DNA of 20,000 nt, taken from an uncultured virus (IMG/VR IMGVR_UViG_3300032233_002452). Its lineage: Duplodnaviria; Heunggongvirae; Uroviricota; Caudoviricetes. Positions 2,201 through 19,855 of this stretch are shown here, piece by piece (positions within the stretch are counted from its first letter, which is position 1; every line of letters begins with the position of its first letter). The stretch is from the IMG/VR virus record IMGVR_UViG_3300032233_002452. One strand, given 5' to 3'. A program made the position numbers and the translations under genes. Below the pieces are notes generated by a model that did no database searches, had not been told where the DNA came from, and saw only the letters and a list, made by a program, of their open reading frames with translations.

Positions 2201-2770
2201 TTATAGAATGTGGTCTGCTACACCTAGTTCGACTAACTCTTTTGCCGTTAACCAAATGTCACTTGGTGGCAAAAGCTTAGACTTGATTGTGCGGACATCC
2301 AGACTAGTGGCGTCACGCAAAATATTTACCATTCTTTGATTACAATTTTCATGTTCACGTGCTTGCGCTTTTATATCGTGGTACTTACCTTCTGGTGAAT
2401 CAGAAAATTGATGGCACATAATGCCTGTGTTGGGTGCAATGTATCTGTTTCCCTTTTGACCTGATGCAAAAATAAGAAACGCTGCGGACATAATAGAACC
2501 AATTCCAATAGTATGAATCGGATGTGTACTCATCTTCATTATGTCAATCAGGCCAAATGCCTGATATAAATCTCCACCAGGACTGTTCACGTATAGGTGT
2601 AAAGTTTTTGGTTTCGACTGGTCTAAATTTTCATAGACAATCCATTGAATCGCATCACGAATGTTGTCTTCATCAACATCACCCGTAAGGAAATGGATGT
2701 GTTTGTCTAAAAATTTTAATTCTATCTTTTCTTGTACTGGACAAAAGTCCAAATCTTTATTCTCTACCAT
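2201..2770 (-). CDS. clpP: ATP-dependent Clp protease proteolytic subunit (ClpP-like)
   Basis: LYVNSPGGD, GSIMSAAFLIFASGQKGNRYIAPNTGIMCHQ (catalytic Ser, His), DIWLTAKELVELGVADHI; likely start MVENK at 2770. Confidence 0.9.
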   Translation of the reverse strand: MVENKDLDFCPVQEKIELKFLDKHIHFLTGDVDEDNIRDAIQWIVYENLDQSKPKTLHLYVNSPGGDLYQAFGLIDIMKMSTHPIHTIGIGSIMSAAFLIFASGQKGNRYIAPNTGIMCHQFSDSPEGKYHDIKAQAREHENCNQRMVNILRDATSLDVRTIKSKLLPPSDIWLTAKELVELGVADHIL

Positions 2771-3701
2771 TTCGTTTTTCCCATTCGTAGGCTGTTGCGA
2801 TAATAGAGAATATATCATGTTTAGGGCGGTAATTCAATAGATTCTTGGCAAGAGTAACATCGGCAACTAACCTGTCGGGGTCACCCATTCTGCGTTCGGC
2901 AATACTGTAATTTACCTTTATGTTTTGGGTAGATTCGATTAATTTAATGATTTCTAAGATAGAATACCCGGTGCCTGTGCCTAAGTTGACAATGAAAGAA
3001 TCATTATCATCCAAGTGGTCAATAGCTAGAAGGTGTGCTGAGGATACATCACTTACGTGAACATAGTCTCGGACGCACGTACCATCATCGGTACTATAGT
3101 CATTACCATAAACTCTGAATGTATTTAGATTCCGAAAAATGCTAGGAATCAGATGTGTCTCAGGTTCATGGTTTTCACCAATATCACCCTCAGGGTCAGC
3201 ACCGGCAAGGTTGAAATATCTGAAAATACCATACTTAATTCCAGACTCCATAATCATGTTTTCACAAGCGATTTTGGTAGAGCCATAAACTGAATTATCT
3301 GGTGTTGTACATTCGTCTTCTTGTAAAGGCATGTAACCGGCTAGATAAACTGCAGCAGTTGAACTAAACAAGATTTTTGGCACCTTGTTTTTCTTCATTG
3401 CATTTAAAAGAATCGCAGTACCACCAACGTTCACTTCATGGAATTCTGTTGGGTCTTTCATTGATTCACCAACCTCAATACGTGAGGCGCAATGAATTAC
3501 CAGGTCGTACCTATGTCGAGCTAGAACTTCATTCACCCTAGTACGGTCACGAATATCACCAGGATAAAAAACGTGGTTGTATTTGTGAGTTGGTATTTTT
3601 TGGTCAAACCCAACTACAGTAAAACCTGCTATATGCAGGTCTTTACTTAACTGACTACCGAGATACCCGGAGCTACCTGTAACAAGTGCTGTTTTTTCCA
3701 T
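2757..3701 (-). CDS. galE: UDP-glucose 4-epimerase (extended SDR)
   Basis: TGSSGYLG NAD motif, FSSTAAVY, YGSTK, RYFNLAGA, GENHEPETHLIP, DGTCVRDYVHVSD, NLGTGTGYS. Confidence 0.92.
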   Translation of the reverse strand: MEKTALVTGSSGYLGSQLSKDLHIAGFTVVGFDQKIPTHKYNHVFYPGDIRDRTRVNEVLARHRYDLVIHCASRIEVGESMKDPTEFHEVNVGGTAILLNAMKKNKVPKILFSSTAAVYLAGYMPLQEDECTTPDNSVYGSTKIACENMIMESGIKYGIFRYFNLAGADPEGDIGENHEPETHLIPSIFRNLNTFRVYGNDYSTDDGTCVRDYVHVSDVSSAHLLAIDHLDDNDSFIVNLGTGTGYSILEIIKLIESTQNIKVNYSIAERRMGDPDRLVADVTLAKNLLNYRPKHDIFSIIATAYEWEKRNGRE

Positions 3702-4390
3702 GGAAATTCACTATTATATTTTTGAAATTGAATTGCATTACCTTGGTCAAAGAATTCTTTACTAACAGAATTCGGATTACCATCTAAACGATAACACATT
3801 GTATGAGCATTCGTGCATCCAAAATTAGGAAAGTTGTTTTTTAACGCACCAAAGAATTGTCTATCGGCGCCCCATTGGCCGTACCAAGCATGCCCAATCC
3901 TAACAGCAACATCACGGCGTATGGCAAAACTTGATGTATCAATGTGAAATACTTCATTGTTAAAAAATACAGGCCATTTTCCCAACGATTCACAATTGTC
4001 ATCACAGAGGTAGTTACCATTTTTATCATATATTTTCCTTAAAGAATATGCCCAATCATTACCTTCTTGAATTTTATTCACCAACTTTTCAACGTGACGT
4101 GGTTCATACCAGTTGTCTTCGTCAAGGTAACAAATAATATCCGCATTTACCAGAAACGAACAGGCAGCATAGACACGGTGACCGTACCAATTCTTACCTA
4201 CGTTTTCTTCCAATTCAATCATTCTGGTTTTAGTAGAACCAACTAGAATTTCTCTAGCTTTAGGTTCATACTGACAACCATCAATGAAAACGTAATGTGT
4301 CAAATCTTTATAAGTTTGTTTATCAACAGAATCGACACAATCCTTCAGTAACGAACTACCAATTGTAGGAGTTACAACAGCAACTTTCAT
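3647..4390 (-). CDS. Glycosyltransferase family 2 (GT-A fold)
   Basis: VAVVTPT, VDSVDKQTY, VFIDG, ICYLDEDNW (DxD), IDTSSF, GADRQF. Confidence 0.85.
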   Translation of the reverse strand: MKVAVVTPTIGSSLLKDCVDSVDKQTYKDLTHYVFIDGCQYEPKAREILVGSTKTRMIELEENVGKNWYGHRVYAACSFLVNADIICYLDEDNWYEPRHVEKLVNKIQEGNDWAYSLRKIYDKNGNYLCDDNCESLGKWPVFFNNEVFHIDTSSFAIRRDVAVRIGHAWYGQWGADRQFFGALKNNFPNFGCTNAHTMCYRLDGNPNSVSKEFFDQGNAIQFQKYNSEFPWKKQHLLQVAPGISVVS

Positions 4391-4641
4391 TTCTTCACCA
4401 AAGGGTTTACAGTATCATCCCAGCCCATTTCTTGTGAAATTTTTGACAACTTCTCAAGTGCTGCCAAACGAGCATCATCTTCTTTTTTAATTTCTTCTGC
4501 TGCTTGAATCACTTGTTCATGCAGATTCTCATCTTTCAAATCACGTTGAAAAATTGCGTCCCAACGGTTCACATATTCCTCTTGTGAAATGCTGAATGGT
4601 CGTGGCGAACTTCCTTTGCCGCCATCACTCATCTTACTCAT
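4387..4641 (-). CDS. Hypothetical phage protein
   Basis: 84 aa ORF coupled to neighbours; N-terminal SDGGKGSSPRP...Y..RWDAIF motif. Confidence 0.65.
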   Translation of the reverse strand: MSKMSDGGKGSSPRPFSISQEEYVNRWDAIFQRDLKDENLHEQVIQAAEEIKKEDDARLAALEKLSKISQEMGWDDTVNPLVKK

Positions 4642-5397
4642 TTATAATTTCCTCTCAATGTCTTCTTCTGTACAATAATCACCATATTGTATTTCAACAA
4701 TACGGCAAGGCTCATCGTATGGGTTACACAATTGATGCCATTCACCCAATGGAATATCTAGTTTGTCGTGCTTCATCATATTAACGGATGGCAATCTATA
4801 ACCACTCAACATTGCTCTATGTACAACGCATTTACCTTCAGATACAATCCAATACTCATGTCGTCCACTATGTCTTTGAAAACTTAGTGAAGCTTCGGGG
4901 TCAACAGTCAACTCTTTAACTTTCATTCCCGGTACTTCATGTAGTATACGATAATAACCCCATGTGCGTGTGGTTTTAGGATGTGTCCATTGGTCGAGAA
5001 TCCAAGAACTTGAATTCATCTTATGGTCGCCACCAATACCGAACTTGAATTCTACTCCAGCAACTCTCATCTCGGGAATATTTTCTTTTGTCCGGTCTCC
5101 ACCATTGGCAAAAATTATTTCTGCTTTTGGGTATTTGGCCTTCGCATATTCTAACACATCACATGCTGTATTGTCAAGGTCATTAATATTATATACCTCA
5201 TCAACCATGCGTAGATTGTAAATAATTCCGGCACGGTCATTCCAACGCATGAAAGGTCGACCTTTTTTACGGGTCAACCAATCATCAGAATTTACACCAA
5301 CAATAAGGTAATCACCAAGAGCTTTTGCTCGGTGAAACATTTCAATATGACCGGAGTGTAATGGGTCAAACCCACCAGATACGACCACGACTTTCAT
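4642..5397 (-). CDS. Cytidylyltransferase-like (HxGH) domain fused to mannose-6-phosphate isomerase type II cupin domain
   Basis: SGGFDPLHSGH, VGVNSDDWLTRKKGRPFM, FANGGDR, NSSSWIL; then RTWGYY, LSFQRHSGRHEYWIV, GEWHQLCNP, IVEIQYG, EEDIER. Confidence 0.88.
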   Translation of the reverse strand: MKVVVVSGGFDPLHSGHIEMFHRAKALGDYLIVGVNSDDWLTRKKGRPFMRWNDRAGIIYNLRMVDEVYNINDLDNTACDVLEYAKAKYPKAEIIFANGGDRTKENIPEMRVAGVEFKFGIGGDHKMNSSSWILDQWTHPKTTRTWGYYRILHEVPGMKVKELTVDPEASLSFQRHSGRHEYWIVSEGKCVVHRAMLSGYRLPSVNMMKHDKLDIPLGEWHQLCNPYDEPCRIVEIQYGDYCTEEDIERKL

Positions 5398-9913: not shown

Positions 9914-9955
9914 GCACTATTTGAATACTTGACCAAATTGGTCTGGTATTACTGT

Positions 9956-9973
9956 TGTTGTTTTTATACAACA
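9956..9973. repeat. Palindromic motif TGTTG-N8-CAACA, copy 4
   Basis: TGTTGTTTTTATACAACA overlapping stop of 9964..10161. Confidence 0.75.
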
Positions 9974-10161
9974 GTTATTTCATCCGAATCCATTAGTACT
10001 ATGGTTCTCAGTTCTCCGAACACCACAATAGGTTCATCTAATACAATAGTATTACTTACCTTACCACCGTATTTTACACGTGATTCCTGTACAATACCAG
10101 TAAAAAAGTACTCATTTAAATACTTGCCCACAACCTGCTTACCATCAAGAATCCAACTCAT
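9964..10161 (-). CDS. Small hypothetical protein (beta-rich)
   Basis: 65 aa, GAGGT RBS; GIVQESRVKYGGKVSNTIVLDEPI. Confidence 0.7.
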   Translation of the reverse strand: MSWILDGKQVVGKYLNEYFFTGIVQESRVKYGGKVSNTIVLDEPIVVFGELRTIVLMDSDEITVV

Positions 10162-10186
10162 AGTTACCTCATTAATTTATAGGGTA

Positions 10187-10215
10187 ATTTTACACTAAAT
10201 AGGGATAATTGGCAA
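10187..10215 (-). promoter_or_regulatory. sigma70-like early promoter TTGCCA-17-TAAAAT
   Basis: Upstream of 9964..10161. Confidence 0.7.
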
Positions 10216-10240
10216 GCGGTATAACCGTTATTTTTCATCA

Positions 10241-10258
10241 TGTTGCAAAAATACAACA
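10241..10258. repeat. Palindromic motif TGTTG-N8-CAACA, copy 5
   Basis: TGTTGCAAAAATACAACA, 25 bp upstream of the -35, in the divergent intergenic region. Confidence 0.75.
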
Positions 10259-10270
10259 ATAAGGGTCAAC

Positions 10271-10549
10271 ATGGACTTTTTTAAATTGGTAGCCGAGGTA
10301 GGGTTTCCTATCGCAGCGGCTTGTGCGGGTGGTTACTTTATTTTCTTAACACTCAAATTCATTTTGGCTGGTGTTATGAGCTCAGTCAAAGGTCTATCAG
10401 GAATCATTACAGCATTAGACAATCGTGTTAAAACGATGAATCATGATGTAGTGCGTATTGATACCGTAGTTTCAAATGCTCTTGGTTTAAAACCAGATAC
10501 AAATCGTATAGCTCGTGCCGATGGCAAGAATGACGCAAGGAGAGATTAA
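10271..10549 (+). CDS. Single-TM coiled-coil protein with GFPI motif (YvrJ/holin-like), paralog A
   Basis: VAEVGFPIAAACAGGYFIFLTL TM followed by ALDNRVKTMNHDVVRID heptads. Confidence 0.75.
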   Translation: MDFFKLVAEVGFPIAAACAGGYFIFLTLKFILAGVMSSVKGLSGIITALDNRVKTMNHDVVRIDTVVSNALGLKPDTNRIARADGKNDARRD

Positions 10550-10746
10550 TGTTATATGTTGAATATAATTTTGATTTAGAAAACAACACCATTATGTTTG
10601 ATAGTGATATGAGATTGGAAGGATATCCACTTCCGGGTGTGGGCGGAAGATTGCCAGAAAAGTGGAAAGATGGAGATTTATGGATGATGAAAGTTGTCGC
10701 TGATGGTAGAGTCGTTTTACAGAAAGTTAAAGAGAATGAACTCTGA
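10549..10746 (+). CDS. Hypothetical protein (possible AbrB-like beta-hairpin tail WKDGDLW..DGRVVLQK)
   Basis: 65 aa, TAATG coupling, GGAG RBS. Confidence 0.55.
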   Translation: MLYVEYNFDLENNTIMFDSDMRLEGYPLPGVGGRLPEKWKDGDLWMMKVVADGRVVLQKVKENEL

Positions 10747-10897
10747 CAATTTGACTCAACGTGAACAACTGATATACAACATGTATTTGTGCGAATGTGA
10801 TAAAAATAAAAGAATGAAAAGTATCATATACAGATGGAAATTGTCGTGGTACAATCTTACAAAGAGAATAAAAAATGGATGTAGTAGAGTTAATTAA
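10736..10897 (+). CDS. Possible small hypothetical protein
   Basis: ATG at 10736 overlapping previous stop region; overlaps next gene by ~23 nt. Confidence 0.35.
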   Translation: MNSDNLTQREQLIYNMYLCECDKNKRMKSIIYRWKLSWYNLTKRIKNGCSRVN

Positions 10898-11174
10898 CAA
10901 GTATGGTTTCCCAATTGTCGCTGCTGGCGGCATGGGTTACATGATTTACTTTGTATGGGAATGGGCAACAAAAGAGGTAAAGCCTGTTTTGTCTGAGGCA
11001 AATACGGTGCTTATCGCATTGATTGACCGTATTCGTATGCTTGATAATGACCTGATTCGTTTACAACAAAAGGTCGATGTGGTTCTTCACCTGCGTGGTA
11101 AGACCATTGAACATGAGCGTGTGATGGCTGAAGCAGAAATCAACAAACAACACGCCGAAACAAACAAGAAATAA
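10875..11174 (+). CDS. Single-TM coiled-coil protein with GFPI motif, paralog B
   Basis: INKYGFPIVAAGGMGYMIYFVW TM followed by ALIDRIRMLDNDLIRLQ heptads; alignable to 10271..10549. Confidence 0.75.
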   Translation: MDVVELINKYGFPIVAAGGMGYMIYFVWEWATKEVKPVLSEANTVLIALIDRIRMLDNDLIRLQQKVDVVLHLRGKTIEHERVMAEAEINKQHAETNKK

Positions 11175-13184
11175 TTACTTGCTTGTTGCCCGATAGGTGC
11201 CGTCCCAATCTTTTGGTGCGGTACCACCTTTAATTCTGTCATACATTACATCATAATAGTCACTCATTTCTGGAGTGGCATTCTTACACAATTCAATAAC
11301 ACCACAAGCTTTAGACCATTGACCTCTGTAGTAAAAGTCAAGGAAGGTTTTGTGTTGTTCCGTTTCATGTGCTAGTGTAAATATTTTTACACCTTCTTTT
11401 TTACCTTTAACTGCGATACAATCCAGTTCAAAGATATCATATTCATCTTTTACCAATTCTGCGGTTCTTTGACCTAAGACCATCTTTACAGCATAAGGTT
11501 TAGATTGTCCCTCTAAACGTGATGCAAGGTTTACGCCGTCACCTAGGCATGTGTAGTCAAATCGTTGGTCACTACCCATGTTACCTACAACCACGACCGC
11601 ACTATTAATACCAAGACCCATACCGAATGCAGGAATGCCTTCAGCGGTTATCTCTTTGTTGAAATCTTCTAAACTTTCCATCATCTGCAATGCAGTCTTA
11701 ACTGCCATGTGTGCATGTTGTGGTTCGTCTAGTGGTGCATTCCAAAATGCCATCTGAGCATCACCAATATATTTGTCTAGTGTACCATTATTGTCAATGA
11801 TTTTTTTCGTCATTGCCGTCATGTAACGGTTCATAATCTTTGTTAGGCCTTGTACATCTCTACCATAGTGTTCTGAGATTGTGGTAAAACCACGAACATC
11901 GGTAAACATAATTGACAACTCACGTTCATCACCACCCAATTGTAATTTTTCAGGATGTTTCTGCAACTGAGAAACTAGTGCTGGTGACAAATATGTTCCA
12001 AATTGTTTTTTGATTTGTAATTTTTGTTTTAACTCAACTAAGAATTTGACAATGTATCCGTGGAAGCTAACCAAGATAAGGACTGATATCGGAAATACAA
12101 CATCAACCAAATACTGATATCGAACAAACAATTCGGTACCAAAAATGTATGTACCTACAGCAATACAAAGTGCAAAGATGTATCCGTGTGTATATCTTGC
12201 TAGTAGTAGAGTTATTATACAAAACGACACAATGTATAATAACTCAGCTGGTAGTGCCCAATCTGGACGTGATATGTTTGTGCCGTTTACAACGGTGTCT
12301 AGTACTGCAGCTTGAACGTAATGTGGATAGACTGCGCCTGAAGGTGTTGCGACAGGATTGTTGAGACCTTTTGCGGTGAGTCCAACGATAACGATTCCGC
12401 CACCAAAGTCTTTGGGTAATTTATTGGCTGAATGTTCAATGGGTTTTGTAGACCAATCAACCCAAATTCTACCAAGTTCATCTGTGGTGATTTTTCCAAA
12501 TTTAGGAATTCTAACTGCCTCGATTCCGTTGTCGGTGACTTTGACTTGAAAACTTGGGTCTCCTGAGGCGACTCTGAGGGATTCCAAACTGATTGAGGGA
12601 TACAATCTGTCTCCGGACTGTACCACCATAGGCACTCGTCTTGTAACTCCATCGATTTCAGGGAGGGTGTTGACAACACCAATGCCAGCAGCGCTATCAT
12701 TGAGTTGTTTAATATTCGGTTCGATATTGCCATAATTTACTCCTGCGTTTTCACCACCAATTACAGAAACACCTGGTCTGAATGGTGGATATTTGTTTGT
12801 TATGTTTTCTGTAGTTGCTACGTGAGGTATAACTACTGGATATTTTTTGAAAGTTTGTGCTAATTGAGAATCTTGACCAAACCTATCACCGTCAGGCATA
12901 TACACGTTAAAGATAACCAACCCAGCACCATGCCGATACAAATCAGTAATGAGGGTGGCATATTCTCCACGGGGGAACGGGAATTGTCCTTTTTGTCGAA
13001 TATAGGCATCGTCTATGTTTACAACATGCACCTGTTTAGATACAGTTGTTTCCTTTCCTGTAATGAGTGTGTCGAAATAACGAAGTCTCACGGATTCTAC
13101 AAAACTTGGGTCTGCAATTCTGATTGCCAATAAAAGCATCATTGTTAGAAGTGCAGTCCAAGGCGACAGTAGAATTTTTTTCAT
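11175..13184 (-). CDS. CHASE2-domain class III adenylate cyclase (N-terminal TM, periplasmic CHASE2, ~3 TM, cytoplasmic cyclase)
   Basis: CHASE2: VNIDD..GQFPFPR, DGVTRRVP, YPHYVQAAVL; cyclase: MFTDVRGFTTISE, LDKYIGDAQMAFW, GINSAVVVVGNMGS, DYTCLGDGVNLASRLEG, VKGKKEGV; C-terminal PKDWDG. Confidence 0.95.
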   Translation of the reverse strand: MKKILLSPWTALLTMMLLLAIRIADPSFVESVRLRYFDTLITGKETTVSKQVHVVNIDDAYIRQKGQFPFPRGEYATLITDLYRHGAGLVIFNVYMPDGDRFGQDSQLAQTFKKYPVVIPHVATTENITNKYPPFRPGVSVIGGENAGVNYGNIEPNIKQLNDSAAGIGVVNTLPEIDGVTRRVPMVVQSGDRLYPSISLESLRVASGDPSFQVKVTDNGIEAVRIPKFGKITTDELGRIWVDWSTKPIEHSANKLPKDFGGGIVIVGLTAKGLNNPVATPSGAVYPHYVQAAVLDTVVNGTNISRPDWALPAELLYIVSFCIITLLLARYTHGYIFALCIAVGTYIFGTELFVRYQYLVDVVFPISVLILVSFHGYIVKFLVELKQKLQIKKQFGTYLSPALVSQLQKHPEKLQLGGDERELSIMFTDVRGFTTISEHYGRDVQGLTKIMNRYMTAMTKKIIDNNGTLDKYIGDAQMAFWNAPLDEPQHAHMAVKTALQMMESLEDFNKEITAEGIPAFGMGLGINSAVVVVGNMGSDQRFDYTCLGDGVNLASRLEGQSKPYAVKMVLGQRTAELVKDEYDIFELDCIAVKGKKEGVKIFTLAHETEQHKTFLDFYYRGQWSKACGVIELCKNATPEMSDYYDVMYDRIKGGTAPKDWDGTYRATSK

Positions 13185-14266
13185 TTTTGTATGATGTTAA
13201 TTGTGGTAGAACCACCAGTATTTACTTTTTGAGTTATTGCCAAACCATCTTGTGTGATATTGACAACAGAACTCTGTTCAATATTTAGAGTTACCACGGC
13301 CGTGTGTGAACTGGTTTTATTTAAGGTTACTTTACTGCCATCATCATTGAAATAGAAAATTAGACCACTAGCTTCATTATATCCAGGTAACAAAGTACTC
13401 ACGTTTGCCATTTCTTCAAACGATTGAAACAGTTGCCGTGTTGATAAATCTAAGGCATTGACCAACATGTTTACATCAAGTAGATTGATATCCAATTCTC
13501 TAAATGAATCAAGTTTGTTTTTATCAAGTTCATCATACTTTAAAAAGTTGCGGTCAAGAAAATTAATATCAAGTGCAGTTTTCATTTCCGACTTATGTTT
13601 TTCTTCTTCTCTAATTTCTTTTGGTGGTGCAATAATCAACATGTTGTTGATATTCATTTGGTCAACCATAATGACGACCGGTTTACTAGGTGGTAGATTG
13701 CGTGATACAACTAGTGTTGTTTGAAATGCTACATCCATAAAAACTTCACCGGCATCAGTTGATACCGAAATGGCACCGGTTACACAACCTTTATCATCAC
13801 ATGACGGTAAAAGAGTTACTAGACTACGACCTAATTCATCAACGGTCATAGAAAAATCGGTTCCACGTACAGCAACCGTTGCGGTTGGAGTCTGTATGTT
13901 GACCGATTGAGGATTAGTTTTTGCGATTTGACCACTTGCGTATCGTGCGGTGCCCATCACGACTTTCATGGCCAGTTTACCAGAACCTTTGATTGGGTCA
14001 TAAACAAAGTCATCAATGACCAGTTTAGATTGTTCTGTTATATTTACTGTTGTTTTGTCTTCGAATTCGAGTTTAGCCTTGGCACGAGCGGTAACTATCG
14101 TGTCATTCATTTCTACACCAGCATTGACCTTACTTTCGATTGACTTTTTGTTTCGTACAATCTCAGTAGGTCCGGTTTGTTCAGTAACCTTACCGACTGC
14201 GGCGTAATTAGTTTGACTGATTAATAGTAATGTTGTTACTATTGCCAGTCGAATTAACTGTAACAC
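13181..14266 (-). CDS. Secreted FecR-domain protein with curlin-like C-terminal strands
   Basis: GTG start, signal peptide; MNDTIVT, LEFEDKTTVNITEQSKLVIDDFVYDP, TPTATVAVRGTDF FecR motifs; ATGA overlap with cyclase. Confidence 0.88.
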   Translation of the reverse strand: MLQLIRLAIVTTLLLISQTNYAAVGKVTEQTGPTEIVRNKKSIESKVNAGVEMNDTIVTARAKAKLEFEDKTTVNITEQSKLVIDDFVYDPIKGSGKLAMKVVMGTARYASGQIAKTNPQSVNIQTPTATVAVRGTDFSMTVDELGRSLVTLLPSCDDKGCVTGAISVSTDAGEVFMDVAFQTTLVVSRNLPPSKPVVIMVDQMNINNMLIIAPPKEIREEEKHKSEMKTALDINFLDRNFLKYDELDKNKLDSFRELDINLLDVNMLVNALDLSTRQLFQSFEEMANVSTLLPGYNEASGLIFYFNDDGSKVTLNKTSSHTAVVTLNIEQSSVVNITQDGLAITQKVNTGGSTTINIIQK

Positions 14267-14798
14267 TTTGCGTTGTTATTCCAGATTGTGTAACACCAAT
14301 AACGTTTGTGTCACCAGTAACAGTAATATTTGCGTTTACTGTACCTGTTGAAGTGCTAGTATGCGTAACTTGGTTAGTACTGCCAGACACAGATATTGAA
14401 CTGGTGTGGTTTCCACCAGAACCTAATAGTTGTTTTACTGTGTTATCATCACCTACAATTTGTTGACTAATTGTGGAACCAGAACATGAAGCAGAAGTTG
14501 TAGTACCGCATTGAACTTCTTGCATGTTTCCAGAACCAACTGTATTCAATGTAACGTTCGTAGCGGCACCATTAACTGTCATAATCAATTCATTAGATGA
14601 ACCAATTTGGTCAATAATTACGGTATTTGTGCCGCCACCGATAAAAACGGTATCTGTTGGTGTGCCAACTTTGTTGCCTGTTCCGTCTTGTGTAATTGTT
14701 ACGGTCGAATTATCGCCTACCTGTTCAATATACACTTCGTTTGCATAACTTAAATTCACACCAACCATCATAGCAATGATTAATGCTAATTTTTTCAT
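14208..14798 (-). CDS. Curlin-repeat (CsgA/CsgB-like) secreted beta-solenoid protein
   Basis: Signal MKKLALIIAMMVGVNLSYA; repeats NEVYIEQVGDN, STVTITQDGTGN, NTVIIDQIGSSN, NVIGVTQSG, NNITINQ; ATGA overlap with csgG stop. Confidence 0.75.
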   Translation of the reverse strand: MKKLALIIAMMVGVNLSYANEVYIEQVGDNSTVTITQDGTGNKVGTPTDTVFIGGGTNTVIIDQIGSSNELIMTVNGAATNVTLNTVGSGNMQEVQCGTTTSASCSGSTISQQIVGDDNTVKQLLGSGGNHTSSISVSGSTNQVTHTSTSTGTVNANITVTGDTNVIGVTQSGITTQSVTVNSTGNSNNITINQSN

Positions 14799-15574
14799 TT
14801 GTTTTCCTTTTTGAAAGACCATAGTCCTTTTTTCTGTCCGTCCATAATCATCTCATATACTGATTGTTCAATTGCAACCCTAACGGCATAAGTCGTAGGT
14901 TCATTTGCGGCAGAACCACCTTCTAGTTCTAAGGCTTTCGTACCTTGTTCCAGAAATTTTAATACACCCACATTGCTTGATGTTGAATATACTGTTTTTG
15001 ATATTGCATTTGTCAGCAATATTTCACCAGAAGATACACTCACCAATCTTAATGAAACTGTTATCTCATCTACTCTATATTGTTGTGATGCCCCGATACC
15101 AAGATATCTGGCGCCTGCACCACCACTTTTAATGTTACTATCAAAACCAATAATACCACCTTCAATCATTACACCGGCAACTGTCATTGGTTTCAATGTC
15201 TTTGCTTCTTTACCCTCATAAACTTCACGTTGGTTACGAATCAATTGTCTTTCTTTGATGACGTTATCCAAACCAACACGTTCTACAACCTTAAACCAAC
15301 CTGGTACATCTTGTAGTGCTTTGATTAAAAACACTTCGCCACCTTGCGTTACCGCTTTACTGAACAGAGCCAGTTTGTCACTAGGTTTCATTTGGCCTGT
15401 CTTATCAGTAAAACCATAAACAGCAATAGTGATTGGCGGTCCATCCAAAGGTGGTATAGACTCTATCAAATTCTTTCTAGGTTGCACTTTGATAGGTTCT
15501 TCTTTAAGATACTCTAGGTCAATGCTAGCGCATCCTGTTAAAAAGACTATCAAAAGTGCAGCAATAAATTTCAT
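14795..15574 (-). CDS. csgG: Curli secretion channel lipoprotein CsgG
   Basis: Lipobox FLTGC; VYGFTDKTGQMKP, FSKAVTQG, WFKVVERVGLDNVIKERQLIR, IEGGIIGFDSNIKSGGAGARYLGIG, VSLRLVSVSSGEIL. Confidence 0.93.
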   Translation of the reverse strand: MKFIAALLIVFLTGCASIDLEYLKEEPIKVQPRKNLIESIPPLDGPPITIAVYGFTDKTGQMKPSDKLALFSKAVTQGGEVFLIKALQDVPGWFKVVERVGLDNVIKERQLIRNQREVYEGKEAKTLKPMTVAGVMIEGGIIGFDSNIKSGGAGARYLGIGASQQYRVDEITVSLRLVSVSSGEILLTNAISKTVYSTSSNVGVLKFLEQGTKALELEGGSAANEPTTYAVRVAIEQSVYEMIMDGQKKGLWSFKKENK

Positions 15575-15575
15575 A

Positions 15576-17591
15576 TTAGAATAATACTTTTAAACTTACT
15601 TGAGCAATGTTGTTTGTTACACCGTTTTGACGTTGTTGGGTTAGTGTTGCATTACCCAACACATTTTCTTTAGGTGTAAAATTTGCACCAACTTTAATTG
15701 TTGTAATGTTATTTGTTGTTCTACCAGCTTCTGCGATTACATTAACTTTTTCAAATACCACATTCTCATATCGCAAGCCGGCTTCACCGATGGTATTAGT
15801 TTTGTTAATCTTATCATATGTCATAGAAGAAACTTCTGAACCACTTTCAGTTAAACCATTTCGTTGTGCATTCTGTACACGCACGCCAGCGTACGGACGA
15901 AAACCTTCGAAACTTTCGAGACCTTCAATACCTTCTAAAGAAGGAGCGTATAATCTGTTTGCCAACCACACATCTTTACCATTTGCTTTACCTTGATTGC
16001 CTAATTGCAATTCATTGATTGTATGGTAGTTTCTATATGTATTTACGGCAACGCCGAAATCACTCTTCAACAACCAGCCTTCGTGACTATAAAGACTGTA
16101 AACACCCACATGATTCTTTTCTAAATTACCACCTGATTGGTCACCAGTTAGATTTGAGTTAACATAGTTGTACTGCCCACCAACTATCCAATTCGATTCA
16201 ATATTCTTTTCGTGGCCAACACCATAACGTTGAGTATTGAATTTGTAAGTATCACTTGTATTGCTACGTTGACCTTCAGCGATAAAATATGTCCAACCTT
16301 TTTCTTCATCACCAATCAAATCTGTTTTTGGTTTTATAATGTTATCAGAAACTTGATGGCGAGATAGAGTATCACTATCTAATGTTAAGTTGATACGATG
16401 GTTGGCATCGTTTAAGTATGAGTATTGGTCAACACGTGTTGAGTAATCTTTTTTGGTGTCAATTTCAACCACTTCAATACCAGGCGTATCAACAGAAGAA
16501 ACACTATTAGATGTTGTTGTTGATGTTACTGGTGTGCCGTTTTCAATTGTTGTAGTGCCGTCACTCCACACTTTTGTTGTTACTGGTGTTGTTACAGTTG
16601 TTGTAGTAACAGGAGTGGTACTTGTTTGTGTCAATGTGAACGGTGTTTTCCCTGTTGTTACAGTTGTTTGAATTACCTTCAATACTTTAGGTGTTTGTTC
16701 GCCTCTACCATTCGATTGAGCAACAGCGACAGCAGTAACACCATATGCAATATTGTTAACAATAGTAGATGTACCATTTACAGATGAAGATGTGGTTGAA
16801 TCGGATGTGGACTGACTAACAACAGTTGCAGCTGGTGGTGTTGGGTCTACTGTTGGCATTGATGGGTCGTTTGGAGCAACAGAACCAAATATTGTACCGT
16901 TTTGTGTAACTGTGCCGAGACCATCATTCACGTTTAGTACAGGAGATAGTGCGGTGTCACCTTGGTTGAATACTGCAAAACCTAATTTATAAGTGCCAGC
17001 GGTCAATACATTATAATTAACAACTTGCCAACCGGTTGAACCATATGAACCGGTTGAATAGTTACCTGTACCAGGATTTGTTGCACCCAATAATAAGTAT
17101 TGAGTTGAGACACCGTTAATCTTACCTAATGTAGTTGCATCACCTGTGTTTACCAAAGTGGTGATAGAACCATCATTGAATGGTACATAATCAACCGATG
17201 TATATGTCCAGTACATTTTGAAGGTTGATGGTGCTGCAAAGGTAAAGTTTTTGCTTACCCATGCAGCATTAGTGATGCTACCACCACCTGATGGGTTTTG
17301 CGCTGCGATTTCAGCAGACAAGGCTGTTACACTTGCTGAACTTAGACCTAATGCCGTTGACATATTTGAATATGTGTTGGTAGTGTTTGTTGGTGATAAA
17401 CTATACATTGTACTACCAGTATATGGACTGATAGACCATGCATTTGGTCCTGCTTGAAATGTTTGAGCACCAGTTAATGTTTGTCCAGAAACGGACGACC
17501 AATCACTAGTACCTAAACTCAAATCTAAACTCTGTGCGTTTACAGATAGACACATCAATAGCGTCAATCCTGTCATTGCTTTCTTTAACAT
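15576..17591 (-). CDS. Secreted protein with Ser/Thr-rich passenger, Thr-rich stalk and C-terminal autotransporter-like beta-barrel
   Basis: Signal peptide; TTPVTTTTVTTPVTT stalk; amphipathic strands (WIVGGQYNY, HVGVYSLY, FRPYAGVRV, GLTESG, GEAGLRY) ending VSLKVLF (terminal Phe beta-signal). Confidence 0.75.
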   Translation of the reverse strand: MLKKAMTGLTLLMCLSVNAQSLDLSLGTSDWSSVSGQTLTGAQTFQAGPNAWSISPYTGSTMYSLSPTNTTNTYSNMSTALGLSSASVTALSAEIAAQNPSGGGSITNAAWVSKNFTFAAPSTFKMYWTYTSVDYVPFNDGSITTLVNTGDATTLGKINGVSTQYLLLGATNPGTGNYSTGSYGSTGWQVVNYNVLTAGTYKLGFAVFNQGDTALSPVLNVNDGLGTVTQNGTIFGSVAPNDPSMPTVDPTPPAATVVSQSTSDSTTSSSVNGTSTIVNNIAYGVTAVAVAQSNGRGEQTPKVLKVIQTTVTTGKTPFTLTQTSTTPVTTTTVTTPVTTKVWSDGTTTIENGTPVTSTTTSNSVSSVDTPGIEVVEIDTKKDYSTRVDQYSYLNDANHRINLTLDSDTLSRHQVSDNIIKPKTDLIGDEEKGWTYFIAEGQRSNTSDTYKFNTQRYGVGHEKNIESNWIVGGQYNYVNSNLTGDQSGGNLEKNHVGVYSLYSHEGWLLKSDFGVAVNTYRNYHTINELQLGNQGKANGKDVWLANRLYAPSLEGIEGLESFEGFRPYAGVRVQNAQRNGLTESGSEVSSMTYDKINKTNTIGEAGLRYENVVFEKVNVIAEAGRTTNNITTIKVGANFTPKENVLGNATLTQQRQNGVTNNIAQVSLKVLF

Positions 17592-17602
17592 TTATTTTTC
17601 CT

Positions 17603-18061
17603 TTAGAATGCGAAACTTGCTAACGGTACGGTTATATCAGTACGATTACCACTTGCTTCTATAATTGTTAAAGTCACCTCAGTACCAGTCTTGACCCAAG
17701 ATATGTTAGTACCTTGAAAGTCCATGTTACCTGAATTACCACTACCCTCAGCGAACATTGCATCCGCTAATTGTTTGGATAGTTGTGCGTATATGCGAGA
17801 TTCTACATTGACCAAAAACTTGGCCAAGTTCGTATTTTTAGCATCTCTTTCTGCCTTATCGGCAGCTGCCTTTTGTTCGTCCCTTATTGTTTTTTTGCGT
17901 TGAGCCTCCAACTGTTCAATAGTAAGGACGTGTGACGAATACCCCACTCCATTGAAGGATGGGGAATTGAATGAATGAACTAGTTCAGAGGCACTTACGG
18001 TTGATACCGCAAAGAATATAGAATAACAAAGACCACTAATATTTTTTATTAGTCTTTGCAT
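17603..18061 (-). CDS. csgF: Curli assembly protein CsgF-like
   Basis: After signal peptide, SELVHSFNSPSFNGVGYSSHVLTIEQ matches CsgF N-terminal F-x-N/S-P-x-F-x-G; FLVNVESRIYAQLSKQL; C-terminal T-x-I-x-VP. Confidence 0.82.
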   Translation of the reverse strand: MQRLIKNISGLCYSIFFAVSTVSASELVHSFNSPSFNGVGYSSHVLTIEQLEAQRKKTIRDEQKAAADKAERDAKNTNLAKFLVNVESRIYAQLSKQLADAMFAEGSGNSGNMDFQGTNISWVKTGTEVTLTIIEASGNRTDITVPLASFAF

Positions 18062-18068
18062 AACGGTA

Positions 18069-18076
18069 TATTTATG
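18069..18076 (-). promoter_or_regulatory. Putative T4-type late promoter CATAAATA heading the csg operon
   Basis: NATAAATA box 7 nt upstream of csgF ATG; one mismatch to T4 gp55 consensus TATAAATA. Confidence 0.5.
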
Positions 18077-18099: not shown

Positions 18100-18175
18100 T
18101 GGTGGGCTGAGAAGGACTTGAACCTATCACTCAAGCGATTATGAGTCGCCTGCTTTACCTTTAAGCTACCAGCCC
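18100..18175 (-). tRNA. tRNA-CAT, probably Ile2 (lysidine-type) rather than Met
   Basis: Cloverleaf, anticodon arm GGCGA-CTCATAA-TCGCT as I recall it for E. coli ileX; 3' CCA. Confidence 0.8.
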
Positions 18176-18180
18176 ATATA

Positions 18181-18264
18181 TGGTACGAGAGGAGGGACTC
18201 GAACCCTCAATCCTTGCGGCGGCAGATTTTAAGTCTGCTGTGTATACCATTCCACCACTCTCGC
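18181..18264 (-). tRNA. tRNA-Leu(TAA)
   Basis: GCAGA-CTTAAAA-TCTGC, long variable arm, CCA. Confidence 0.92.
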
Positions 18265-18291
18265 ATCGTCTTTAAAAATTATTGAATGTTT

Positions 18292-18367
18292 TGGTCCGGC
18301 GAGAGGGATTCGAACCCCCATCGGACGGTGTAGAAGACCGTTGCCTTATCCATTAGACCATCGCCGG
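18292..18367 (-). tRNA. tRNA-Arg(TCT)
   Basis: ACGGT-CTTCTAC-ACCGT, GTTCGAATC T-loop, CCA. Confidence 0.9.
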
Positions 18368-18375
18368 AAATAAAT

Positions 18376-18573
18376 ATGTTTATGTCACAAATAAAATATA
18401 AGAATTATATAACATCATTGGTTGATAATATTCCTAAAAAATTTGAAAATAAAGCTCAACAGCAAGCATATGAAAAAGGATTCTTAATAGGAATTCTTGT
18501 TAATCTTGCACTAGATGATTCTAGGAATTTCTATATTATTAAAAAGAAGTTTGGTGCTCTCAACGAGGATTGA
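18376..18573 (+). CDS. Small AT-rich ORF antisense within tRNA array
   Basis: 65 aa ORF preceded by AATAAATA late-promoter-like box; 3' end overlaps tRNA-Thr. Confidence 0.5.
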   Translation: MFMSQIKYKNYITSLVDNIPKKFENKAQQQAYEKGFLIGILVNLALDDSRNFYIIKKKFGALNED

Positions 18574-18625
18574 ACTTGTATTTCATCCTTACCAAGGATG
18601 TGTAATGCCATTATACTATAAGAGC
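18552..18625 (-). tRNA. tRNA-Thr(GGT)
   Basis: CATCC-TTGGTAA-GGATG; one T-stem mismatch; CCA. Confidence 0.85.
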
Positions 18626-18631
18626 TAAACT

Positions 18632-18708
18632 TGGTGCCCCAGAGGAGACTCGAACTCCTAAAATTTGGTTTCTAAGACCAACACGTATACCAATTCCGTC
18701 ACCGGGGC
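18632..18708 (-). tRNA. tRNA-Leu(TAG) with short variable loop
   Basis: TTGGT-CTTAGAA-ACCAA; 77 nt; CCA. Confidence 0.85.
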
Positions 18709-18716
18709 AAATTAAA

Positions 18717-18792
18717 TGGTACCAAGAATTGGACTCGAACCAACCACACCCAGATTTTCAGTCTGGTGCTCTACCTGATGAGCTATCTTGGC
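18717..18792 (-). tRNA. tRNA-Phe(GAA)
   Basis: CCAGA-CTGAAAA-TCTGG; CCA. Confidence 0.92.
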
Positions 18793-18796
18793 ATAA

Positions 18797-18871
18797 TGGT
18801 ACATCGTGACGGGATTGAACCGCCGACCTCCGCCTTGTAAGGGCATTGCTCTACCGCTGAGCTAACGATGC
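18797..18871 (-). tRNA. tRNA-Val(TAC)
   Basis: TGCC-CTTACAA-GGCG; CCA. Confidence 0.9.
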
Positions 18872-18882
18872 AAAATTTTCTT

Positions 18883-18956
18883 TGGGGTGACCTACGGGAG
18901 TTGAACCCGTACTAACAGAATCACAATCTGGGGTGCTACCGCTACACTAAGGTCAC
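18883..18956 (-). tRNA. tRNA-His(GTG)
   Basis: CAGA-TTGTGAT-TCTG; C73 discriminator; CCA. Confidence 0.9.
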
Positions 18957-18968
18957 ACCAAAGAAAAC

Positions 18969-19042
18969 TGGAGCAGAGTGTGGGAATCGAACTCACGACA
19001 CCAACTTGGAAGGATGGAGTTTTACCATTAAACTAACCCTGC
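18969..19042 (-). tRNA. tRNA-Gly(TCC)
   Basis: CCATC-CTTCCAA-GTTGG; U73; CCA. Confidence 0.88.
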
Positions 19043-19124
19043 AAATGTACCGATGCTTATCCAAGCAGTAGCAATGTTCGGTACCACACAAAGGCAGGAT
19101 TTAAAAAGAGCCTGCACTCTTAAA

Positions 19125-19198
19125 TGGAGCGGGATAGGAGAATCGAACTCCTGACTAAACCTTGGCAAGGTTTCGTTTGACCATTAAACTAATCCCGC
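19125..19198 (-). tRNA. tRNA-Gly(GCC)
   Basis: AAACC-TTGCCAA-GGTTT; CCA. Confidence 0.92.
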
Positions 19199-19203
19199 AC
19201 AAT

Positions 19204-19683
19204 TCATGCTGCCTTACGGTCAAGAACAAATTTTAATCTGTCTGCGGCGTAAGAAGCAGCGAATGCGTTCGGTTTCACCATTGGTACGACATTACACATA
19301 CCTTTGATGTAACCAACTGCTTGTGAAATAACACAAGAACTACCATGCATCTCGTTTGGGTTAATGTCTAAATGTACTTCAACGTGTTTATCTTCTAAAA
19401 CGTCACTTAGATTTTGGAATAATTCCGCAACCTTGTACACTTCATTCATCAAACGCATAGATGGTTTACTCATACGTTGGTCATAATCTCTTTCACGTGA
19501 AACTTCACCAAAGATTTTACAACCGTTATTACCGTTAATGTGAACTACGATAGCAAGTGTATAGTCGGCGTACCATACACCTTTCAAATTAATTCTTTCG
19601 GAGTCAGCACCAAGATAAATTTTAGTTTCTGGTGACTGTGCTTCAATGAATGCTTTGACTTCGTTTAGATTTAATTTTTTCAT
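19204..19683 (-). CDS. RNase H-like YkuK family protein
   Basis: KIYLGADSE, RLMNEVYK, EVHLDIN, KPNAFAASYAADR. Confidence 0.85.
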   Translation of the reverse strand: MKKLNLNEVKAFIEAQSPETKIYLGADSERINLKGVWYADYTLAIVVHINGNNGCKIFGEVSRERDYDQRMSKPSMRLMNEVYKVAELFQNLSDVLEDKHVEVHLDINPNEMHGSSCVISQAVGYIKGMCNVVPMVKPNAFAASYAADRLKFVLDRKAA

Positions 19684-19698
19684 AATTCATTTTCTTTG

Positions 19699-19772
19699 TG
19701 GCATCCCGGCAGGGACTCGAACCCCGACCAACAGTTTTGGAGACTGGTATGCTGCCATTACACTACCGAGAT
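19699..19772 (-). tRNA. tRNA-Trp(CCA)
   Basis: CAGT-CTCCAAA-ACTG; G73; CCA. Confidence 0.9.
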
Positions 19773-19778
19773 AAAATC

Positions 19779-19855
19779 TGGTACCCTAACGTGAACTCGA
19801 ATCACGGACCTTTCGCTTATCAAGCGAATGCTCTAACCAACTGAGCTATTAGGGT
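19779..19855 (-). tRNA. tRNA-Ile(GAT)
   Basis: TTCGC-TTGATAA-GCGAA; CCA. Confidence 0.92.

Follow-up and report, generated by a model that had tools for sequence, protein, structure and literature searches.

The 20,000-nucleotide stretch analyzed here, hereafter the window, belongs to an uncultured virus of the Caudoviricetes (IMG/VR record IMGVR_UViG_3300032233_002452) and carries a block of six genes for a CsgF-like protein, an autotransporter-like protein, CsgG, a curlin-like protein, a FecR-domain protein and a class III cyclase with a CHASE2 domain. Its closest described relatives are the curli, or type VIII secretion, genes of marine phages. Zaragoza-Solas et al. 2020 (PMC7029224) recorded csgF and csgG in pelagimyophages and proposed ‘sibling capture’, and Buchholz et al. 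2022 (PMC9004378) proposed a lysis-timing pore for the CsgG of phage Melnitz, in a main text that mentions neither the cyclase nor FecR. Wittmers et al. 2022 (PMC9599517) delineated the region in podo- and myophages as a histidine kinase, CsgF, CsgG, CsgA/B, FecR, often a second CsgA/B, and a cyclase. These authors pointed out that bacterial curli operons contain neither FecR nor the cyclase nor the kinase, took FecR as an iron regulator, reported cassette transcripts in metatranscriptomes and found the cassette at all 65 ocean stations examined. The words ‘CHASE’ and ‘autotransporter’ are absent from the main text of that paper, and we found no literature joining CsgG with CHASE2 and FecR. 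In the phage literature considered here, FecR is not linked to the CHASE2 domain, and an autotransporter-like insertion between csgF and csgG is not mentioned.

The six-gene block is a member of this published viral cassette of curli, FecR and adenylate cyclase genes. The original prediction, made from the letters of the window alone, stated that csgF and csgG had been noted in SAR11 and OM43 myophages, and missed that the whole cassette, including FecR and the cyclase, was already published (PMC9599517) and annotated in phages HTVC008M and Melnitz. In DNA and protein searches of isolated phages, the cluster appeared just in Pelagibacter phage HTVC008M and four Melnitz methylophages. The deposited annotations (gp014-019 in HTVC008M, gp99-104 in Melnitz) list csgF, csgG, a curlin-associated protein, a FecR domain protein, a second curlin or hypothetical protein, and an adenylate/guanylate cyclase; the proteins of the window share 37-53% identity with them in the best tblastn segment, and 28-33% for curlin. 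Particular to the window are the autotransporter-like gene between csgF and csgG, seen again in one related locus (L069), and an ATAAATA motif before csgF.

With a probability of roughly 45%, we propose that the cassette equips the infected cell, at a late stage, with a curli-type pore and fibre and with a displayed surface protein, and that a periplasmic sensing pair made up of FecR and the CHASE2 cyclase produces cyclic AMP (cAMP). Once FecR is linked to CHASE2, what had been an iron regulator and a cyclase becomes a hypothetical two-protein sensor, one with parallels in bacteria, for a cassette that is very common and occupies nearly 7 kb of phage genome. If true, a phage would here be supplying its host with a new sensory pathway; if the sensor reading is false, what remains is a device for fibres or adhesion to which the cyclase is loosely attached.

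The six-gene block and its conservation in related phages

Re-derivation of the open reading frames (ORFs) gave six co-oriented, tightly packed minus-strand genes at 11175-18061 (Table 1), and hidden Markov model searches against Pfam identified their products as CsgF, Autotransporter, CsgG, Curlin_rpt, FecR, and CHASE2 plus Guanylate_cyc. The junctions are also those originally described. Gaps of 11 nt and 1 nt separate csgF from the autotransporter-like gene and the latter from csgG, the curlin-like and FecR genes overlap by 59 nt, and FecR overlaps the cyclase gene by the 4 nt of an ATGA. The overlap of csgG with the curlin-like gene is likewise ATGA when curlin starts at its ninth codon (ATG 14798), which gives 196 aa and matches the start site of most homologues; the longest ORF would overlap by 28 nt. 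Export or membrane signals (signal peptide, lipobox or transmembrane segments) are present in 6/6 products, with signal-peptide-like N-termini in CsgF and in the autotransporter-like, curlin-like and FecR proteins. Each product is therefore a predicted envelope protein, in line with the earlier picture of an operon spanning the envelope layers. The domain identities, export signals, catalytic residues and conserved gene linkage of the block count as established.

Table 1. Positions and calls of the cassette genes, their protein parts and the surrounding features of the window.
Feature	Position	Strand	Size and parts	Calls and remarks
csgF-like gene	17603-18061	-	152 aa	Pfam CsgF 3e-15
Autotransporter-like gene	15576-17591	-	671 aa; signal peptide; ~225-aa head (20-245); Thr/Ser/Pro-rich stalk; predicted C-terminal beta-barrel	Pfam Autotransporter beta-domain 2e-12, residues 441-610
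csgG	14795-15574	-	259 aa	Pfam CsgG 6e-55
Curlin-like gene	14208-14822	-	204 aa from first ATG	Pfam Curlin_rpt 3e-6, one repeat
FecR-domain gene	13181-14266	-	361 aa, GTG start; signal peptide; FecR beta-sandwich 23-200; Leu-Asp-rich linker 207-294; small C-terminal domain 300-361	Pfam FecR 1e-10
CHASE2 class III cyclase gene	11175-13184	-	669 aa; first transmembrane segment; periplasmic CHASE2; three transmembrane segments (~312-378); cytoplasmic catalytic domain (~415-605); conserved 60-aa tail	Pfam CHASE2 3e-37, Guanylate_cyc 8e-20
T4-type late-promoter-like motif ATAAATA	18069-18075	-		8 nt upstream of csgF start codon
tRNA array	18100-19855	-	12 genes	ARAGORN, Rfam; directly upstream of cassette, context only
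ORF within tRNA array	18376-18573	+	65 aa	second ATAAATA at its start
RNaseH_like gene within tRNA array	19204-19683			PF04308
Small ORFs between long minus-strand blocks	9929-11174	+	four ORFs	
Last of the small ORFs	10875-11174	+		phrog_18771
Sugar/lipopolysaccharide-type island	2757-5397	-		

Conservation of the block was assessed through a CsgG-based scan of IMG/VR, which returned 36 loci (CsgG identity 64-79%; longest contig 364 kb; single loci are given below with the prefix L), with gene presence determined by tblastn. csgF was found in all 36 loci, the curlin-like gene and FecR in 29/29 loci with at least 2.2 kb beyond csgG, and the cyclase in 21/21 loci with at least 4.5 kb beyond it; the 12 loci lacking a cyclase every one end at most 4.4 kb beyond csgG. 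In these phages csgF and csgG do co-occur with FecR and the CHASE2 cyclase, as the sensor idea of the original prediction needs. All 36 loci fall in one CsgG clade and include near-duplicates (e.g. L027/L028/L029, L016/L036), so they do not represent independent events.

The stretch from FecR to the cyclase measures 0-5.3 kb in the relatives and may hold unrelated TerC, cytochrome c and glycosyltransferase genes; in the nearest relatives (L021, L026, L030) no gene stands between the two, as in the window. Two loci (L020:15275-17185, L023:14377-16920) have an LpxH-like phosphoesterase, a UDP-glucose dehydrogenase-like gene and a family 4 glycosyltransferase there. These calcineurin-like phosphoesterases were considered as cAMP phosphodiesterases and rejected, their best NCBIfam matches being weak and of LpxH type, with glycosyltransferases adjoining.

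The T4-type late promoter reads TATAAATA, and the motif before csgF resembles it. The ATAAATA before csgF is one of two copies in the window, against 7.8 expected from shuffles, and the second marks the start of a small plus-strand ORF (Table 1). Judged by eye, most related loci keep TAAATA at a similar spot before csgF, in many cases with a small hairpin and GGAG after it, and no sigma-70-like or terminator-like site stands out within the operon. On this sequence pattern, ATAAATA may act as a promoter, and the operon would then be expressed late. A related motif, TATAAAT, is the late-promoter motif used in the Melnitz paper (PMC9004378).

The FecR protein and the CHASE2 cyclase

In the FecR-domain protein the signal peptide leads directly into the FecR domain, with no N-terminal cytoplasmic anti-sigma domain, and families of sigma factors and TonB receptors were not found among the window ORFs. 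Without a cytoplasmic anti-sigma part, and with no sigma factor or TonB receptor nearby, the protein does not qualify as a FecR-type iron regulator. By analogy with the bacterial gene pairs described below, the best reading makes its gene a partner to the CHASE2 sensor, which supports a sensing role. The structure model gives a predicted local distance difference test score (pLDDT) of 76-89 in ten-residue blocks over residues ~21-200, below 50 over 207-294 and about 55 in the C-terminal domain, and the best Foldseek match of the FecR domain is the C-terminal cell-surface signalling domain of PupR (6ovk, E 8e-5). Two cysteines, C156 and C161, are invariant. As modelled, the low-confidence linker of ~90 residues between two folded parts would suit a tether spanning the periplasm. 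The C-terminal part was also tried as a curlin repeat and rejected (hhalign probability 5%, vs 1.7% for the FecR N-domain control). The FecR family is large: of the 8000 candidates scored, at least 6223 match at E<=0.001.

The best solved relatives of the cyclase are adenylate cyclases (6fht, 1e-33; P. aeruginosa CyaB 3r5g, 3.6e-28). Class III cyclases employ a metal-binding Asp pair, a substrate-binding Lys together with Ser/Thr (or Asp), a transition-state Asn and an Arg, and the combination of Lys with Ser/Thr is typical of class IIIb adenylate cyclases. The window cyclase has all of these residues (D429, K471, D475, S528, N552, R556); D429, K471, D475 and R556 are invariant in 20 homologues, and the position of S528 is Ser or Thr in most of them. 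The pair of Lys and Ser/Thr points to ATP as the substrate. The CHASE2 domain is kept in 20/20 aligned homologues, and the tail of ~60 residues has invariant Tyr, Arg and Trp and no family match. Two catalytic types are seen, with Asn or Ser at the transition-state position, and the cyclase is a mosaic, its CHASE2 half and its catalytic half being closest to different relatives (L016:17717-19786, L022:14224-16275, L023:17387-19441). A complex prediction for FecR residues 23-215 with CHASE2 residues 24-312, run with alignments and without controls, scored 0.00 and weighs neither way.

Bacterial relatives of the phage FecR were sought by a FecR-alignment scan of species genomes, which returned 21 loci. 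Six are short contigs of metagenome-assembled genomes (MAGs) under six taxon labels that carry cassette genes, four with all five genes and two incomplete at the ends. PHROG matches occur in two of the four contigs probed (L041, L043), so we read the cassette-bearing contigs as mis-binned phage DNA. CsgG gave no tblastn match in the other 15 loci, in a scan that reaches relatives of the phage FecR only. The candidate explanation that bacteria carry the whole CsgG-FecR-CHASE2 block was therefore set aside, although its absence from bacteria is not shown by these loci.

FecR and CHASE2 genes do occur as pairs in bacteria. Two Acidobacteria-titled loci have a FecR or FecR-OmpA gene directly before a gene for a CHASE2-HD-domain protein, and CHASE2 was found in 55 of 151 genomes sampled from the phylum of these MAGs, a tally in which one unpublished genome is counted but from which nothing further was taken. 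Neighbours of CHASE2 were counted, within 1.5-kb flanks, in 26 of 30 fetched loci, leaving out one that is unpublished and three in which the CHASE2 gene had been missed. Among these neighbours, Peptidase_M48 occurs in 4/26 loci (L083, L085, L086, L090), and outer-membrane barrel-like proteins are encoded next to CHASE2 genes in L076, L079, L098 and L103. In S. meliloti, the gene SMc02177 presumably adjoins cyaD1, to go by the locus numbering. Its product carries a FecR domain and is reported as dispensable for signal perception (PMC5498481). The outer-membrane protein NsrA of the same species is required for the response of CHASE2 cyclases to an external protein (PMC13001267; PMC7529298), and free ribosomal protein uL2, present in plant, yeast and bacterial extracts, triggers a response of NsrA together with CyaK, a CHASE2 cyclase (PMC7529298). 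An outer-membrane protein working with CHASE2 cyclases, as the original prediction envisaged for the phage, thus has a bacterial precedent. In Burkholderia and Pseudomonas, LysM-FecR genes lie directly before CHASE2 kinases (BiofilmReg in Burkholderia) (PMC5192318), and in Campylobacterota the CHASE2 cyclases cluster with a FecR-domain outer-membrane protein, a phosphodiesterase and a tetratricopeptide-repeat (TPR) protein (PMC9239204).

A separate cluster was seen in Elusimicrobia-titled MAGs (L047, L048, L050, L054), with a FecR protein of ~245 aa, a lipoprotein of ~350 aa, a small lipoprotein, a UPF0164-like protein and a thermolysin-like protein of ~1180 aa with FlgD-Ig. In L047 the lipoprotein with a weak FlgT_N match was not seen and the thermolysin-like protein is cut to 776 aa; the ORFs of L059 match by size alone. 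The FlgT_N-like lipoprotein, which also stands beside a CHASE2 cyclase in L104, was tested as a relative of CsgG and rejected (1% in the profile comparison).

Pore, fibre and surface proteins

The Pfam match of CsgF covers profile positions 10-132 of 132, and its hydrophobic N-terminus ends in VSA. CsgG has the lipobox LTGC and no transmembrane helix, as predicted for an outer-membrane lipoprotein pore subunit, and its residues 7-256 align to E. coli CsgG chains (3.7e-47). In this alignment two of the three constriction-loop residues of E. coli CsgG differ in the window, with Ser in place of Tyr and Leu in place of Asn, and the third, Phe, is unchanged. Longer CsgG relatives of 354-415 aa (e.g. 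L013:9989-11236) carry a C-terminal bacterial SH3-like domain (SH3_3/SH3_4) in four of the six scanned (L003, L005, L013, L023; best E 6.5e-9, the others 3e-5 to 1e-4, a single match passing Pfam's own cut-off), and the 259-aa CsgG of the window is without it. The CsgE, CsgC and CsgD families gave no match among the 30 window ORFs scanned, in keeping with the original statement, and CsgE (PF10627) was found in 0/5 related phage genomes, with a positive E. coli control.

The missing CsgE gate bears on two proposals that give the pore a purpose of its own. In the first, taken from the pinholin or secretin idea of PMC9004378, CsgG with or without CsgF would be a re-purposed pore that times lysis. 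The changed constriction residues fit such a role, as do the late-promoter-like motif and the Rz-like spanin genes that lie 4 kb upstream in one related contig (L041). However, holins depolarise the inner membrane, whereas CsgG is an outer-membrane lipoprotein without a transmembrane helix and CsgF has a signal peptide only; a secreted substrate and CsgF are conserved alongside CsgG, and FecR, the cyclase and the surface cargo would be left unexplained. We regard this proposal as highly improbable. In the second, put forward in PMC7029224 and PMC9599517, an ungated CsgG pore would admit nutrients or cofactors to the infected cell, an idea that the lack of CsgE in the related genomes would suit. 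Uptake has no need of the conserved CsgF, fibre subunit or surface cargo, and the FecR protein has neither an anti-sigma part nor an adjoining sigma factor or TonB receptor, so that the chance of an uptake pore appears very slight, the smallest among the explanations weighed here.

The curlin-like protein matches NCBIfam CsgA at 7e-6, with 26 bits against a cut-off of 160, and its family has conserved Q-x-G-x-x-N units and two conserved Cys (26 homologues). Its AlphaFold model (pLDDT 87) is all-beta, with stacked strand pairs. The top VIA-align match of this model is Pontibacter CsgA (8c50, Z 17.0, 167 residues, root-mean-square deviation 8.4), the E. coli CsgA fibril ranks sixth (Z 13.6), and unrelated beta-helices reach Z ~14.8; Foldseek returned nothing at E<=0.001 with the same model, and sequence searches of the PDB gave no match for the FecR protein, CsgF or the curlin-like protein. 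Because generic beta-helices come close to CsgA, the assignment to a curlin-type solenoid follows from motif and fold class and not from a decisive score. Since the beta-solenoid is modelled with confidence and CsgA is its best structural match, the curlin-like protein probably forms fibres, which weakens the original view that the cassette serves sensing rather than the making of biofilm amyloid.

In the autotransporter-like protein a signal peptide is present and the Pfam match (PF03797, 2e-12) spans positions 13-181 of 255; full-length homologues in L060, L065 and L069 have no Pfam match at E<=0.001. A homologue of the gene occurs in 13/36 CsgG-found loci, each time between FecR and the cyclase, and the placement between csgF and csgG recurs in L069 alone, a locus that matches the window in all six genes and in their order. 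Of the 13 loci returned by a scan for the head domain (residues 20-245), seven have the gene inside a cassette, one is L069 and five have no cassette gene in their flanks. In L060, L062, L063 and L064 the head is 80-87% identical to that of the window and CsgG just 48-52%. This difference points to an exchange of the surface-protein gene between diverged cassettes, and the sequences suggest that the swap was recent. Against ESM Atlas models, and as leads only, the head resembles viral clusters ending in an autotransporter barrel or curlin repeats (template modelling score 0.88) and, more loosely, ‘choice-of-anchor’ domains (~0.6). The large genes that follow FecR, among those scanned, include the Autotransporter family in L005, L007, L013 and L016 and an F5/8 type C lectin domain in L004, L005, L014 and L025. 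We read the autotransporter-like gene as movable surface-display cargo, rather than a permanent link in a chain of signalling, so that its place in the system is looser than was first supposed.

Such cargo is also expected if fibres or adhesins are themselves the purpose of the cassette, making infected cells sticky (‘sibling capture’) or coating them against superinfecting phages, as proposed in PMC7029224 and PMC9599517, with FecR and the cyclase tuning production or riding along. The essential curli parts are complete, in CsgG, CsgF and a confident beta-solenoid with CsgA as its best match; display cargo recurs as autotransporter-like barrels and F5/8 type C lectin domains after FecR; and csgG, curlin and FecR form the tightest co-inherited block in the distance comparison given below. 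However, the authors of the Melnitz study saw no clumping in cytograms or by transmission electron microscopy (PMC9004378). The exported FecR and the CHASE2 sensor cyclase, present beside csgG in 21/21 sufficiently long loci, would be left unexplained, and a fixed late programme has little use for a cAMP loop on its own operon, the more so as no CsgD-like regulator was found in the window ORFs. We consider a fibre device of this kind possible but unlikely.

Mechanism, genomic surroundings and comparison with known systems

In the mechanism that we favor, in which a pore and fibre are coupled to a FecR-CHASE2 sensing pair, the operon would be transcribed late in infection, and the Sec, Lol and Bam machines of the host would put CsgG and CsgF into the outer membrane. 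The curlin-like subunit would then exit through the pore and form a fibre, and the autotransporter-like protein would show its jelly-roll head at the surface. The exported FecR-domain protein would cooperate with the periplasmic CHASE2 domain, as is thought for the bacterial FecR-CHASE2 gene pairs, so that some envelope or surface state could be turned into cytoplasmic cAMP. We infer late expression, fibre formation, the contact of FecR with CHASE2 or with CsgG, the signal, the product and its reader from the makeup of the cassette and its parallels. A stronger version, close to the original prediction, would make the cassette a phage-installed sensor from outside to inside, in which fibre or heads, the CsgG/CsgF pore and a tethered FecR report to the CHASE2 cyclase and cAMP times lysis or excludes rivals; we hold this decidedly improbable. 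In its boldest form such a sensor would perhaps detect the debris of lysed neighbours, and with it the progress of the epidemic, and would by analogy be functionally akin to T4 lysis inhibition, acting through a cyclic nucleotide.

Several observations weigh against the favored mechanism. The cyclase is the loosest part of the cassette, both in its distance from FecR and in its orientation, which is inverted in L022 and L023. Pairwise distances across 19 cassettes correlate strongly between the FecR domain and CsgG (r 0.97), less so between FecR and CHASE2 (0.65) and weakly between FecR and the catalytic domain (0.32), although the physical adjacency of csgG, curlin and FecR alone could explain this pattern. 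The catalytic domain has been swapped independently of CHASE2, as in L016, where CHASE2 is 52% and the catalytic domain 79% identical to the window, and N552, at the transition-state position, is replaced by Ser in 14/20 homologues. The head of the autotransporter-like protein also turns up, in 5/13 loci, in proteins encoded far from the cassette genes. FecR genes stand beside kinase, HD and cyclase CHASE2 genes in several phyla, so the pairing recurs, yet it is a minority habit, a Pfam FecR gene lying directly upstream of CHASE2 in 3 of the 26 phylum loci counted. A reader of cAMP is also scarce: the cNMP_binding family (PF00027) was found in 0/5 related phage genomes (HTVC008M, Melnitz and three large related contigs) and in 2/41 SAR11-type genomes, those of the family of a Pelagibacter-titled MAG, for which no completeness values were given. 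Because of these two counts, a CRP-type read-out is doubtful for the marine relatives of the cassette, and the earlier suggestion that the phage tunes host CRP regulons loses weight.

The same looseness raises the alternative that the cyclase serves host takeover or counter-defence on its own and is no more than linked to the curli block, with its nucleotide acting on metabolism or defence. Up to 5.3 kb of unrelated genes between FecR and the cyclase, the two inversions and the separate history of the catalytic domain (r 0.23-0.39 with other cassette parts) would all fit, as would the cassette-less phage cyclases (Acinetobacter phage records and one faecal phage contig), which match the catalytic domain only. 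Against this, all 20 homologues retain CHASE2, and FecR overlaps the cyclase start by 4 nt in the window; moreover, the cyclase is never missing on long-enough contigs, and the FecR-CHASE2 pairing has parallels in bacteria. We therefore judge an independent cyclase improbable, and the sensing pair remains our preferred account of FecR and CHASE2.

The surroundings of the block agree with the T4-like context first proposed. The T4 RNase H-type gene of the window has its best phage matches in Melnitz, HTVC008M and cyanomyophages (44-45% identity), and the flanks also encode GP88, a ClpP-like protease and several PHROG families; no virion structural gene was found within the 20-kb window. The tRNA array comprises genes for Met, Leu (two), Arg, Thr, Phe, Val, His, Gly (two), Trp and Ile, and is broken by the RNaseH_like gene and the 65-aa ORF of Table 1. 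On the far side, the last of four small plus-strand ORFs lying between two long minus-strand blocks converges with the end of the cyclase gene with zero spacer. The sugar/lipopolysaccharide-type island encodes an NAD-dependent epimerase/dehydratase, a family 2 glycosyltransferase and a cytidylyltransferase fused to a mannose-6-phosphate isomerase-type cupin.

Compared with known systems, the FecR protein of the window shares its periplasmic fold with the FecR/PupR anti-sigma factors (FecIRA), but these have a cytoplasmic N-domain, an extracytoplasmic function (ECF) sigma factor and a TonB-dependent receptor, whereas the window protein has a cleavable-looking signal peptide and none of these. 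With bacterial curli (csgBAC-csgDEFG) the window shares the CsgG lipoprotein pore, CsgF and, probably, the curlin-repeat beta-solenoid subunit; it differs in lacking CsgE, CsgC and CsgD, in two of the three constriction-loop residues and in the added FecR and CHASE2 cyclase. In the bacterial FecR-CHASE2 pairs, an exported FecR-domain protein is encoded directly upstream of a CHASE2 sensor, for which class III cyclase output is possible, just as in the window. LysM or OmpA domains for peptidoglycan binding, or a barrel, are found in the FecR partners of bacteria, whereas the phage FecR has its Leu-Asp-rich linker and small C-terminal domain, and the phosphodiesterase, TPR protein and Clr/CRP-type receiver of the bacterial systems have no counterpart in the window. 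Relative to the pelagiphage type VIII secretion cassette, the window is without the frequent, though not universal, second curlin-repeat gene between FecR and the cyclase, has a tRNA array where that cassette has a histidine-kinase gene before csgF and, unlike the cassette of PMC9599517, bears the autotransporter-like gene between csgF and csgG. The two have in common the order csgF, csgG, curlin-repeat gene, FecR and cyclase, the lack of CsgE, and carriage by T4-like phages.

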